Below, piece after piece: positions 25,483 through 29,517 of a stretch of DNA of 64,000 bases. The notes under the pieces are model-generated. The model worked only from the letters and a program-made list of their open reading frames with translations, was not told the origin of the DNA and searched no databases. The stretch lies in the sequence record OR352949.1; one strand, 5' to 3'. Source of the stretch: Escherichia phage AV119. The position numbers and the translations under genes were made by a program. How positions within the stretch are numbered: position 1 is the stretch's first letter; each line of letters starts with the position of its first letter.

Positions 25483-26447
25483 TGTATTCTTTAGAGGAAT
25501 TTAATAATCAAGCAATAAACGCAGATTTCCAACGTAATAATATGTTTAGCTGCGTTTTTGCAACAACTCCATCAACTAAAAGCTCTTCGTTGATAAGTTC
25601 AATTAGCAACTTTTCTTATAATAACTTGGGCCTAAATTCAGATTGGCTAGGATTAACTCAAGGTGATATTAATCAGGGAATTACCACGCTAATTACAGCT
25701 GGCACACAAAAACTGATAAGAAAATCAGGGGTTAGTAAATATCTTATTGGTGCCATGAGTCAACGTACAGTTCAAAGTTTATTAGGCTCATTTACAGTTG
25801 GTACATATTTAATTGACTTCTTTAACATGGCATATAACTCATCTGGATTGATGATATACTCTGTAAAAATGCCAGAGAATAGATTATCCTATGAAACTGA
25901 CTGGAACTACAACTCTCCTAATATTCGTATAACTGGGAGAGAATTAGACCCTTTGGTTATTTCATTTAGAATGGATTCAGAAGCTTGTAACTATCGTGCA
26001 ATGCAAGACTGGGTTAACGCTGTTCAAGACCCAGTAACTGGACTGCGTGCTTTGCCACAAGATGTCGAGGCAGATATTCAGGTTAATCTTCATTCTCGCA
26101 ATGGATTACCTCATACTGCGGTAATGTTCACCGGATGCATTCCAATGTCAGTGAGCGCTCCTGAATTATCATATGATGGAGATAACCAAATAACTACATT
26201 TGATGTTACTTTTGCGTATAGAGTCATGCAGGCTGGAGCAGTTGATAGGCAAGCTGCGCTTGAATGGCTTGAATCTGCTGCTATAAATGGTATTCAAAGC
26301 GTTCTCGGAAATAGTGGAGGTGTTACTGGACTATCTAATTCGCTTTCACGACTCAGTAGATTAGGTGGAACTGCAGGAAGCATTTCAAACATTAATACTA
26401 TGACAGGAATTGTCAATTCGCAAAGTAAAATATTAGGAGCAATATAA
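25482..26447 (+). CDS. 54: baseplate-tail tube initiator gp54
   Basis: 321 aa (T4 320). Confidence 0.9.
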   Translation: MYSLEEFNNQAINADFQRNNMFSCVFATTPSTKSSSLISSISNFSYNNLGLNSDWLGLTQGDINQGITTLITAGTQKLIRKSGVSKYLIGAMSQRTVQSLLGSFTVGTYLIDFFNMAYNSSGLMIYSVKMPENRLSYETDWNYNSPNIRITGRELDPLVISFRMDSEACNYRAMQDWVNAVQDPVTGLRALPQDVEADIQVNLHSRNGLPHTAVMFTGCIPMSVSAPELSYDGDNQITTFDVTFAYRVMQAGAVDRQAALEWLESAAINGIQSVLGNSGGVTGLSNSLSRLSRLGGTAGSISNINTMTGIVNSQSKILGAI

Positions 26448-26451
26448 CAAT

Positions 26452-26480
26452 GGGGACCTTTCGGTCCCCATATTTTTATT
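26452..26480 (+). terminator. terminator after gene 54
   Basis: ggggaccTTTCGGtcccc then tatttttattt. Confidence 0.75.
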
Positions 26481-26766
26481 TACGGAATGAAATGAAAGCA
26501 GCAACTGAAGCAACTAAACTGTCTTCAATATAAACTTCAATTTTTACCGGAGCTTCTGACTCAAATTTACCTGTTACTACACCCTGAAAAATACTTTCAG
26601 TCTGTTTTGGCTTTGAAAAATTTTCAGAAGGAAAAATTCCGAACTTTTTATCTGTTCCGAAAATTTTGATAAATTCATCGTAAACTGCTTCATTAAAAGC
26701 GTTATCAGCAGGAATAACGCCTTCAACTACAAGTTCTTGACCTAAAAAGCGCAAAGAAGATTTCAT
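26476..26766 (-). CDS. hypothetical protein (alt.-3 position)
   Basis: 96-aa ORF preceded by GTTTAC-type early promoter. Confidence 0.6.
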   Translation of the reverse strand: MKSSLRFLGQELVVEGVIPADNAFNEAVYDEFIKIFGTDKKFGIFPSENFSKPKQTESIFQGVVTGKFESEAPVKIEVYIEDSLVASVAAFISFRK

Positions 26767-26774
26767 TCTGTGTT

Positions 26775-26827
26775 CCTCATGTTATGTCAGTAAGACTACT
26801 ATAACACAACACGAGGGACTTGTAAAC
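26775..26827 (-). promoter_or_regulatory. early promoter plus leader (GTTTAC -35, TATAGT-like -10), 53-bp copy 1
   Basis: minus strand GTTTACaagtccctcgtgttgtgtTATAGTag...; identical to 40072-40124. Confidence 0.65.
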
Positions 26828-27185
26828 TACATTTTGAACTTTTTAGTACGCGGAATAGGCATGCGTCAATTTTATACTGCTTCATTGTTTGAAGAGCAGT
26901 ATCAAAAACAGCATTAATGACGCCAATTGGATTTCCACCCAAGTTTCTAAGCTTAACCAGTGATAATTTCTCATTAACACCTATCATTACGATATGCATC
27001 ATTTTATCGCCCGGCTTAACGTTTTTATTCGTATCACCGCCAGAGGTGTATGTACAAAATCTAAATCCAGGAAGCACACTTTCTTCGCCGGCTTGAATAG
27101 CAAAAATTTGTGGTATTTTATGCTTAGGATTTAAGTTAACAACCGGCGCCGAAGCGCCGTCAAATAATTATGTAATAAGTTCCAT
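26799..27185 (-). pseudogene. truncated paralog of the alt N-terminal region; in-frame TAA after codon 5 (MELIT*), distal 92 codons (GTG start 27077) remain open
   Basis: minus-strand translation MELIT*LFDGASAPVVNLNPKHKIPQIF...PGFRFCTYTSGGDT aligns with Alt N-terminus MELITELFDEDTTLPITNLNPKKKIPQIF...PGFRLCTYTSGGDT. Confidence 0.75.
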
Positions 27186-27188
27186 GAT

Positions 27189-29279
27189 TTATCCTTGAAC
27201 GAACTTGTAAGGCATGTTTGCAATATCTATGCAAGACGCAATAATTCCAAGAGATGATTCTACTTTCTGTTTAACATTTGATGAAACAAATGATGCAAAG
27301 TCAACTCTGTCTTCTATATCACCTGTCATTGTAACCAATTCACCAGTTTCCATTAAATGGTCTCCGTCATAGATTACCGATTCGGTGAGTTCTTCTGTGG
27401 TCATAACTTCAGCTTGAATGAGTTTTGTATTATTAGATGTTGTTCCGTCATTATTAGAAGCATCAGTTATTTTATTAACTTTGACCATCAATCCACGCGG
27501 TAGAATAACTTCAGCTTCTGTTGCTATTCCGAGACTTCCTGGATATACAACATTAACTTTATGAGCTCCATCAATTGCCCATCCTATTTGAACTTTAACG
27601 TATTCAGGATTTTCTTTATACGCTCTTATTTCGTTTGGATTAATAGTTATTCCTTCTTCATTTTTATCAACTGTTAATTCATTGCGAGCTTCTGGTTCTA
27701 AAAGACCAATACCAGCATGTGTGATTCCAAAACGTCCAAAAATGATAGGAGTTAAAGAAGTAGATACAAAATTTCTGAAGTAGAACACTTTATTTTTAAC
27801 TAACGCTTCATATATAGGAGCAGTCATACTTTGAGCACGATAAACTGTAATGCCTTCTGGTATACGGTCACCATTTTCAAAAGCTGAATCTAAGTTATTT
27901 ATAGCAGATTCAATTTCTTTTTCACTCATTACATCATATCGTTCTGGATTGTAACGACCTAAAAGAAGATTATTGATGTCAGTATATCCTGAACCGCAAT
28001 ATTCTCTAATGCCACGCTTTTGTGATGGAGTATATTTAGAACCATCACGGGCAATAGTAATATCAATCATTGGACCAGCACCAATTCCAGAAAAACTGTA
28101 AATCATTCGTTTGAGGAATTTAGTTTTTGCTGCGTTCCAGGAATTTTTAGTTATTTCTTCCCAGACTTCATCTGGTTGTCCTTTACGATTTTTATTATGA
28201 TTAGCAAGCCATTTATCTTTATAATCTTCAAAGAATTGATTTACAGCTGCTGCGTATTTCTCTAAACATTTTATTGAAGTAGTTGGTTCATTTTTAATTG
28301 CATTAAAAATTACTTCTTTAATTTTTTCTGAAACTTCACCGACTTGACTCATTGGAAAGAATTTATAATCATAGTGAAGTTCATCTGCCGTTCCTTCAGC
28401 AATAATTTTTGCTGCCTTTGTTTTAGAAGCTAATGAATTAATTCCAATTTTCATTTCTTCTGCTTCGGGAATTAAAGGTGCAGTAGCTGGTTTATTAAAA
28501 TTAGCTGCTGTAGATTCATACTTCTGGAATAATTCACTTTCAAATCTAGAAGATTCCAATGACTGGCTTTGTGCAATTGCTCTACGGGAAATTTTAACTT
28601 TAACGATTACAGCTTGGTCAGAACGTTTATCATTTTCTTGTGCAATAGATGCTGCAATTGCCTCATTTTTGGTTACTTGAGCTCCGGTATCTTTATTGAT
28701 ATAAACATCACCGACCTTCGATTCAACTTTAGTAAAGAGCTCGGTGCTAATTTCCGGAACTCCTGGAATGTCTTCTAGTGATACATTTTTGCGATGTATA
28801 AGAATATATGCATACTTTTTATCGTAATCCCAGAGTTCCTTAAGAAGGACGTATCTGCCACCCGAACGACTACGGATAAGTCTATCAGCAATAACTTGAA
28901 TTTGTCGAGCTTGACCAGCAGTTTTAGACTTAAGAATACGGAGCATACAGGCATCAATTTTATACTGACGCATCGTCTGCATCGCAACAGTAAAAACTGA
29001 ATTGATGTAATTAATTGGGCTTGGACCGAGACCTTTTAATTTAGCAATTGAACCTTTAGCAGTTAATGTAAAAGGAACAATATGCATCATTTTATCGCCC
29101 ATCTTTAGATCACGGTTAGTATCACCTCCAGATGTATAGGTACATAAACGAAAGCCTGGTTGTTCAATTGCGTCATCAACATGAACTGAAAAAATTTGTG
29201 GTATTTTCTTCTTTGGATTTAAGTTTGTAATCGGAAGAGTAGTATCTTCGTCAAATAATTCTGTAATGAGTTCCATCAT
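27189..29279 (-). CDS. alt: Alt ADP-ribosyltransferase (virion-packaged)
   Basis: 696-aa ORF (T4 Alt ~682); N-terminal MELITE; late promoter upstream. Confidence 0.9.
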   Translation of the reverse strand: MMELITELFDEDTTLPITNLNPKKKIPQIFSVHVDDAIEQPGFRLCTYTSGGDTNRDLKMGDKMMHIVPFTLTAKGSIAKLKGLGPSPINYINSVFTVAMQTMRQYKIDACMLRILKSKTAGQARQIQVIADRLIRSRSGGRYVLLKELWDYDKKYAYILIHRKNVSLEDIPGVPEISTELFTKVESKVGDVYINKDTGAQVTKNEAIAASIAQENDKRSDQAVIVKVKISRRAIAQSQSLESSRFESELFQKYESTAANFNKPATAPLIPEAEEMKIGINSLASKTKAAKIIAEGTADELHYDYKFFPMSQVGEVSEKIKEVIFNAIKNEPTTSIKCLEKYAAAVNQFFEDYKDKWLANHNKNRKGQPDEVWEEITKNSWNAAKTKFLKRMIYSFSGIGAGPMIDITIARDGSKYTPSQKRGIREYCGSGYTDINNLLLGRYNPERYDVMSEKEIESAINNLDSAFENGDRIPEGITVYRAQSMTAPIYEALVKNKVFYFRNFVSTSLTPIIFGRFGITHAGIGLLEPEARNELTVDKNEEGITINPNEIRAYKENPEYVKVQIGWAIDGAHKVNVVYPGSLGIATEAEVILPRGLMVKVNKITDASNNDGTTSNNTKLIQAEVMTTEELTESVIYDGDHLMETGELVTMTGDIEDRVDFASFVSSNVKQKVESSLGIIASCIDIANMPYKFVQG

Positions 29280-29299
29280 ATCCTCTCTAGTGTTTATTC

Positions 29300-29307
29300 T
29301 ATTTATA
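29300..29307 (-). promoter_or_regulatory. late promoter for alt
   Basis: minus-strand TATAAATA 21 nt upstream of alt start. Confidence 0.7.
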
Positions 29308-29328
29308 AAATTAAAGGCCCGAAGGCCT

Positions 29329-29517
29329 TTAATAATCTATTGGTAAGAGAGTACGGTATATTTCAAACTTTGGACCTTTTTCATAGGCATCAAATGTTTC
29401 TGTGAATTTATTATAAGCATATGCATCTATAAATTCAATCATAATTTGTGATACAGAAGTAGAAACATCTCCACCTTCTTTTTGAGCAACGACAATTGTT
29501 TCTAAGTAAGCTTTCAT
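29329..29517 (-). CDS. hypothetical small protein between genes 30 and alt
   Basis: 62-aa ORF overlapping gene 30 stop. Confidence 0.55.
   Translation of the reverse strand: MKAYLETIVVAQKEGGDVSTSVSQIMIEFIDAYAYNKFTETFDAYEKGPKFEIYRTLLPIDY

Follow-up and report, generated by a model that had tools for sequence, protein, structure and literature searches.

What is the short gene-like segment that follows the alt gene in Escherichia phage AV119? We considered this question in a window of 64,000 nucleotides from sequence record OR352949.1; all positions below are those of this window. Here, about 390 bp between alt, which encodes the Alt ADP-ribosyltransferase, and the small gene alt.-3 repeat the beginning of alt with a stop codon near their start. 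An 881-nt stretch around this segment matches OR352950.1, the record of Escherichia phage AV120, at 100% identity and at the same coordinates. This phage is a Tequatrovirus from pig waste, and we use its name for the copy in this window. The segment is very probably a pseudogene, formed by microhomology-mediated deletion of a full-length tandem paralog of alt, Alt2, and left afterwards to neutral decay. Its paralogy with alt, the deletion junction, the lesions with their distribution among phages, and the relaxed constraint on the stump carry this reading.

Paralogy, the early stop and the deletion junction

The features of the remnant, all on the minus strand, are as follows.

26799..27185, minus strand: the whole Alt2 remnant, equivalent to T4 alt.-1 plus alt.-2; 128 codons and a stop, with an internal TAA at codon 6.
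27168..27185, minus strand: open reading frame (ORF) MELIT, five codons and then TAA, read from the sequence, with an AAGGA ribosome-binding site at 27196..27192.
27144..27159, minus strand: hairpin CGGCGC-UUCG-GCGCCG in codons 9-14 (D-G-A-S-A-P), from minimum-energy and centroid folds.
26799..27077, minus strand: 92-codon ORF opening with GTG, which is codon 37 of the remnant; from the ORF list and annotations.
27021..27029, minus strand: A-run AAT AAA AAC of codons 53-55, intact here; in alignments T4 and many relatives are without one A.
26838..26846, minus strand: deletion junction, a single 9-bp repeat CTAAAAAGT, placed by BLASTN segments against AR1.
26799..26837, minus strand: out-of-frame tail S-K-C-S-L-Q-V-P-R-V-V-L and then a stop, placed by alignment to AR1.

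The frame of the remnant runs from an ATG at 27185 to a TAG at 26801..26799, 128 codons in all, and this ATG (27185..27183) stands 3 nt (ATC) past the alt stop codon TAA at 27191..27189. The first-pass annotation, made by a model from the letters alone, had reported a paralog of the alt N-terminus directly downstream of alt and had proposed a pairwise alignment with alt. This alignment was run and bore out the paralogy, the similarity being significant at both the protein and the DNA level. Over 117 amino acids (aa), the conceptual 128-codon translation and Alt residues 2-118 showed 60% identity and 74% positives (BLASTP, E 2e-47); the DNA aligned with alt at 72% identity over 200 nt (E 4e-29). 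The product also matched phrog_802 (Alt) at positions 2-120 (E 5e-51), as well as phrog_23015, the alt.-1 family (E 1.7e-41), and phrog_15247, the alt.-2 family (E 2e-48).

Other searches returned little. For the 128-aa product the protein database search gave 3 proteins, namely the cluster of the 92-aa protein, which carries the label PF26846, and two fragments. No ADP-ribosyltransferase (ART) domain was detected, since the product had no Pfam match at E <= 0.1; the N-terminal region of Alt is itself without a model there, and the ART domain of Alt2 falls within the 1699 bp whose loss is described below. The Protein Data Bank (PDB) held no structure over the Alt N-terminal region, only distant matches to the ART domain. 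An IMG/VR search anchored on alt.-3 gave 5 loci.

The TAA was said to lie exactly at the Glu of MELITE, and it does: codon 6 (27170..27168) is TAA in place of GAA (Glu6), the codon found in alt, T4 alt.-1, AR1, FL23, and all 7 full-length copies. The remark that I-x-E is a motif of prohead-protease cleavage sites is also correct, because the T4 prohead protease (gp21) cleaves the Alt propeptide at ITE-6 (PMC5694885). The remnant does not carry this I-T-E motif at residues 4-6, its codon 6 being TAA. The TAA is not a sequencing error, since 43 phage records, from many laboratories, share an identical TAA-bearing 69-mer. We see no support for the idea that a stop on the protease-site Glu is of special significance. 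It needed a single G-to-T change; wherever it could be checked, the stop occurred only in remnant-type phages, and 6 of 12 sampled carriers also have a frameshift.

From which gene was the stump derived? The 128-aa conceptual product was used in tblastn against a phage collection. In many Tequatroviruses the match to its residues 1-116 is 99-100% and falls within a gene that is labelled as a second alt. In AR1, RB7, Bas41, and SHBML-50-1 this gene, which the Bas41 annotation names 'Alt2', encodes 685 aa, begins 3 nt past alt, and ends 60 nt before alt.-3. Alt2 carries its own ART domain, with STS and ExE motifs, and is homologous to Alt over the whole length (41% identity, E 5e-166). Because the homology extends throughout, it was a whole gene that was duplicated to give the full-length state, and the stump descends from that state. 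We infer that the event ran from full-length Alt2 to the remnant.

The comparison of AV120 with AR1 by BLASTN places the junction exactly. It gave two collinear blocks of 97% and 96% identity, which lie 1699 bp apart in AR1 and overlap by exactly nine bases, CTAAAAAGT. At the DNA level the remnant is 97% identical to the 5′ end of AR1 Alt2, against about 72% for the adjacent alt. The repeat CTAAAAAGT is present as a pair 1699 bp apart in 5/7 full-length copies, and as a single copy at the equivalent position in all 20 remnants inspected, T4 included. After the deletion, 116 Alt2 codons are joined, in a shifted frame, to the 3′ end of the gene and the alt.-3 promoter; Alt2 codons 117-682 are lost, the entire ADP-ribosyltransferase domain included. 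Since 1699 = 3 x 566 + 1, the frame shifts at the junction, and the natural stop of Alt2 is therefore bypassed. The tail consists of the last 11 nt of Alt2 (with the bypassed TAG at 26829..26827) and the Alt2/alt.-3 intergenic spacer. A deletion between 9-bp repeats is the signature of slipped replication or illegitimate recombination, and one of these was probably the mechanism here.

A 74-nt query spanning the junction matched 494 records and was contiguous in 90 of them (AV120, T4, and 88 others); the 881-nt query was contiguous in the same 90. The remaining records, about 400 of the 494, match only from the repeat onward and thus have full-length Alt2.

These observations suggest the following course of events. 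The ancestor would have had two full-length alt paralogs 3 nt apart, as AR1, RB7, Bas41, SHBML-50-1, and about 400 other Tequatrovirus records have. Loss of 1699 bp between the direct repeats would have removed Alt2 codons 117-682, and the frame, shifted past its natural stop, would have continued for 12 unrelated codons across the early promoter of alt.-3. No longer under selection, the stump of 128 codons would then have gained its knock-outs: GAA-to-TAA in AV120 and its relatives, the loss from the A-run in T4, and both in many phages. Ribosomes leaving alt could still start at the preserved ATG, only to halt after five codons. The hairpin and the alt.-3 promoter would be inherited parts of the Alt2 locus.

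Lesions and relaxed constraint in the stump

How much damage has accumulated in the stump, and is it peculiar to the stump? We inspected 20 remnant-type phages and 7 full-length copies. The 128-codon ORF is uninterrupted in 2/20 remnants (FL23 and AV121). Six remnants have the TAA only (AV120, fPS-2, fPS-90, EC128, SG1, and FL12), and six have only the frameshift, that is, the loss of one A from the A-run of codons 53-55 (T4, G8, e11/2, Lv5cm, HMD-9, and one IMG/VR contig). Both lesions occur together in a further six (slur14, JEP6, F1, ACG-C40, HY03, and SP21535), and extra indels were seen in two of these: F1 lacks a further 9 bp, and HY03 has gained 7 bp. The HY03 insertion, about 55 nt past the -1 frameshift, restores the distal frame; the codon 6 TAA and the intervening stops stay. 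A comparison of intact and interrupted copies across T-even genomes, which the first-pass annotation had suggested, thus gave 18/20 remnants interrupted versus 1/7 full-length copies disrupted.

The TAA allele was found exactly in 43/489 records, and the carriers that were cross-checked, by a contiguous match or by inspection of the locus (28 of the 42 listed), were all of the remnant type; none of the 7 full-length copies has it. In Shigella phage sb1, full-length Alt2 is broken after 177 codons and annotated as two ORFs (locus L023, 2601-4658). This is an independent inactivation of Alt2 without the 1699-bp deletion.

The single-base variants in codons 1-116 were classed by where they are present. 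Those private to remnants comprised 11 nonsynonymous or stop variants versus 7 synonymous ones, a split that does not differ from the 78% nonsynonymous expected under neutrality (p = 0.09), and those present in any full-length copy comprised 2 versus 28 (p = 8.5e-17 against the same expectation). The contrast between the two classes was significant (Fisher p = 7.5e-5). The changes arising in stumps look unconstrained, and it follows from the split that the apparent conservation of the stump was inherited from, or exchanged with, functional Alt2 alleles. The description of the segment as a decaying duplicate therefore stands as to the decay, seen in the lesions and the near-neutral variants, and falls as to a duplicate of the alt N-terminus alone, because what decays is a truncated full-length Alt2.

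Several points weigh against the pseudogene reading. In the neighbour-joining tree built from the 5′ 348 nt, remnants and full-length copies are mixed, so that the history was not one clean event; the deletion either recurred at the same repeats or was spread by recombination. The intact stumps of FL23 and AV121 adjoin AR1 and RB7 in this tree, and their intact ORFs mean that the stump may have had a transient function. The remnant sample is biased toward relatives of AV120. The full-length sample is small (7), so that some remnant-private variants may exist in unsampled intact genes. Lastly, mass spectrometry often fails to detect small proteins, and the proteomic data considered below come from T4 and not from AV120.

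Cis-acting elements, transcription and possible products

The elements that could give the locus a role beyond its broken frame, together with the two flanking genes, are the following.

27189..29276, minus strand: alt, Alt ADP-ribosyltransferase, 695 aa; from the ORF list, Alt in OR352950.1.
26476..26766, minus strand: alt.-3, 96 aa, DUF5498, the next real gene downstream; Pfam E 6e-64 and T4 annotation.
26798..26827, minus strand: probable early promoter of alt.-3, with GTTTACA, a 17-nt spacer with TG, and TATAGT; promoter scan 10/12 plus TG.
29300..29307, minus strand: T4-type late promoter motif TATAAATA, just upstream of alt; pattern search.

Could the stump be kept for something other than its frame? 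The hairpin might act on the 3′-end stability of alt mRNA or in attenuation, and the alt.-3 early promoter would be retained with it; such retention is compatible with a dead frame, and we regard it as a rather unlikely explanation of the stump. The hairpin itself is real. It has a 6-bp stem (dG -12.8 kcal/mol) 27 nt downstream of the alt stop, and the plus strand reads ccggcgccgaagcgccgT there, a perfect palindrome of 16 nt. The stem is identical in 27/27 remnant and full-length copies sampled, sb1 alone differing, in the loop. The first-pass annotation had found this GC hairpin, as an 18-mer with one wrong end base, and had taken it for a replacement of the corresponding alt segment. That second part does not hold, since the hairpin is present in intact Alt2 and is, on the copies compared, ancestral to Alt2; it encodes G-A-S-A-P versus E-D-T-T-L-P in alt, which is one codon longer. 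The peptide G-A-x-A-P leaves no freedom at four of the six stem pairs. Both wobble-position pairs, which are free, are also G:C, and in an AT-rich genome (about 35% G+C) this is mildly suggestive. UUCG-loop hairpins with stems of at least 5 bp number 11 in the 64-kb window, and the GC-rich ones recur at gene ends. The UUCG hairpin could even be a functional RNA by which the expression of alt/Alt2 is set, although we consider this improbable.

Against a retained function of the hairpin, the diversity among the 27 copies is too low for the invariance to weigh, and they show no covariation in the stem. No U-run lies 3′ of the stem, where GUUGUUAACUU follows, so that the hairpin would be non-canonical as a terminator; the terminator scan made no call. 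The single-alt phage KAW1E185 has no such hairpin past alt. Folded whole, the 116-nt region gave z = -0.09, its notable part being the local hairpin only, and Rfam had nothing at the hairpin, its two chance-level matches (E about 0.6) lying elsewhere in 26300-29500. We also considered the hairpin as the terminator of alt and rejected it, there being no U-run and no terminator marked there in annotated genomes. A 10-bp UUCG-loop hairpin, ATTAAAGGCC-TTCG-GGCCTTTAAT, lies at about 29312-29335 on the minus strand, between alt.1 and alt and just upstream of the late motif, and belongs to the 11 counted above.

The promoter-like site matches at 10/12 positions plus TG, and its GTTTAC is the T4 early -35 consensus (PMC1524935). 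The final TAG of the remnant, which is the stop of the 92-aa ORF, falls inside the -10 hexamer TATAGT. In T4, alt.-3 RNA and protein are both early (PMC9697503 Table S2). On account of this consensus and this timing, the end of the '92-aa protein' most likely stems from the promoter of alt.-3. However, a promoter needs about 30 bp, not about 390 bp. As to the remnant itself, transcripts that run into it are likely to begin at the motif before alt, which was recognized by its agreement with the late promoter consensus of T4. The pattern search found no late-promoter motif directly before the stump, and the stump is therefore probably transcribed by read-through.

Selection may also have favoured the silencing of the stump, although we consider this improbable. 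An enzyme-less stump with the Alt targeting N-terminus could be a rival of Alt for the roughly 40 packaging slots in each head. If this were true, it would explain the dominance of two early lesions (the codon 6 TAA and the codon 54 frameshift) in all their combinations, and also why the sole intact stumps, FL23 and AV121, adjoin full-length alleles in the tree.

It is very unlikely that a real gene for an N-terminally truncated Alt-like fragment with a function of its own is present here, whether as the 92-codon GTG ORF or, as in T4 alt.-2, as a shorter frame from the ATG of codon 62. The ORF is open, as had been noted from the first, from its GTG at 27077 to 26799, and it is annotated as a coding sequence (CDS) in AV120, fPS-2, fPS-90, EC128, and SG1. 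The region is transcribed in T4, and the differences between AV120 and T4 are mostly synonymous. However, this synonymous excess comes from variants shared with intact Alt2, the private variants being the 11 versus 7 given above. The frameshift breaks the frame in 12/20 sampled remnants, with further indels in F1 and HY03, and for its last 12 codons the ORF runs, in the wrong frame, over promoter and intergenic sequence. Shine-Dalgarno pairing is weak at both candidate starts, -2.4 kcal/mol at the GTG of codon 37 and -3.6 kcal/mol at the ATG of codon 62, whereas the reference starts (alt, alt.-3, and the stump ATG) range from -5.2 to -6.4 kcal/mol, the stump ATG at 27185 having -5.2 kcal/mol. 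The T4 time-course omics study classed the alt.-1 and alt.-2 transcripts as middle, and the proteins were undetected; alt.-3 was detected there both as RNA and as protein (PMC9697503 Table S2). The 92-codon ORF is thus most likely not a real gene but the still-open rest of a dead frame, and AV120 probably makes no product from the stump. The possibility raised in the first-pass annotation, an N-terminally truncated Alt-like fragment, finds no support in the near-neutral private variants, the weak Shine-Dalgarno pairing, or the T4 proteomics, in which neither Alt.-1 nor Alt.-2 appeared.

That only the first part of alt was ever duplicated, and never the full gene, is the literal sense of the T4 annotation note and of Nolan et al. 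2006 (PMC1524935), and we hold it to be extremely unlikely. The copy shares 97% identity with the 5′ end of Alt2 but about 72% with alt, its tail is the exact Alt2 3′ end with the downstream spacer, and the breakpoint repeat occurs twice in Alt2. Moreover, full-length Alt2 is the majority state, in about 400/494 records.

We give next to no credence to readthrough or recoding of the codon 6 TAA into a full 128-residue protein with the Alt targeting N-terminus: the ribosome-binding site and the ATG are intact, the rest of the frame is open in AV120, and a stable hairpin follows 8 nt downstream of the TAA, but the stop is UAA with U after it, and in E. coli termination is most efficient in this context. 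A search of the window for tRNA genes, among which a suppressor might have been present, found none. Furthermore, 6/12 sampled TAA carriers are also frameshifted, the TAA allele was never seen in intact Alt2, and the substitution pattern of the stump is neutral.

The alt locus in T4 and its relatives

The order of genes on the minus strand, DNA ligase (gene 30), alt.1, alt, the remnant, and alt.-3, is the same as in T4; on the plus strand, genes 54, 48, and 29 converge on the alt.-3 side. Residues 379-628 of alt match Pfam ADPrib_exo_Tox (E 1e-37). The start of alt has two adjacent in-frame ATGs (MMELITE...; window 29276-29281, minus strand, the other ATG being at 29279); AV120 is annotated from the second ATG, and other genomes vary. 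A bidirectional terminator hairpin at 26450-26471 directly follows the stop codon of alt.-3. In T4, mutants that escape the CmdTAC defence system have C-terminal extensions of the alt.-3 protein (PMC11618068).

The region is already known as the T4 alt.-1/alt.-2 locus, here in an allele with an early nonsense codon. In the T4 RefSeq/GenBank note, alt.-1 and alt.-2 are taken together as the trace of an old duplication of the beginning of alt that acquired a stop codon, and in Nolan et al. 2006 they appear as a paralogous duplication of alt (PMC1524935). In fPS-2 the identical 92-aa ORF is labelled 'similar to N-terminal of Alt, putative pseudogene'; the paper on the fPS phages contains no discussion of it. 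In the literature on Alt2, the alt duplication, or the pseudogene, we found no paper describing a deletion origin. This analysis adds an origin from Alt2, an exactly placed junction, a tail derived from a promoter, a census of lesions, and a test of relaxed constraint, all of which leave the ordinary character of the locus unchanged.

T4 alt.-1/alt.-2 (NP_049810, NP_049809; PHROG 23015, 15247) is the same locus, with the 9-bp junction, the hairpin, and the out-of-frame tail, and with about 96% amino-acid identity to the conceptual product. The lesions differ, however. T4 has GAA at codon 6 and has lost one A, which gives ORFs of 61 aa and 67 aa, whereas AV120 has the A-run intact and TAA at codon 6. 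With Alt2 of AR1, RB7, T2, Bas41, and SHBML-50-1, the AV120 copy shares the first 116 codons, the start context, and the hairpin, and apart from the stop it has no amino-acid difference from AR1 Alt2. It lacks the ART domain, the catalytic R-S-E residues, and the C-terminal propeptide of Alt2, and its frame is broken at codon 6. T4 Alt is a virion-packaged ADP-ribosyltransferase injected with the DNA; the N-terminal region is homologous and the MELIT(E) start is common to both, but the remnant is not an enzyme and is probably not a protein, and the Glu of the cleavage motif is a stop in it.

In other genomes the number of alt paralogs varies. Dhakavirus UGJNEcP3 has three full-length alt paralogs (locus L030, 3910-10173) and AR1 has two (locus L010, 2940-7058), with neighbours exactly 3 nt apart. 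The phage vB_EcoM_KAW1E185 has one mosaic alt (locus L029, 3201-5258), in which residues 1-240 are about 100% Alt1-type and the middle belongs to a third, divergent variant. Its last ~85 residues are 97-100% Alt2-type, and the spacer between it and alt.-3 is of the Alt2 type too. This mosaic structure suggests recombination between members of the array. With one to three paralogs across Tevenvirinae, the alt locus resembles the tandem arrays of paralogs that grow and shrink in the genomes of viruses, although by resemblance only; the loss of a member by recombination between short or long repeats is likewise as in virus tandem arrays.

For annotation this means that the 92-aa CDS called 'RNA polymerase-ADP-ribosyltransferase' in AV120, fPS-90, SG1, and other phages should be marked as a pseudogene fragment, and that 'duplication of the first part of alt' in the T4 note is better read as 'deletion remnant of Alt2'. 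The alt locus appears as a small tandem array of injected effector genes, whose members are gained, lost, and reshuffled. The remnant would be a datable example of such a loss, via 9-bp microhomology and then neutral decay, and its value lies mainly in annotation.

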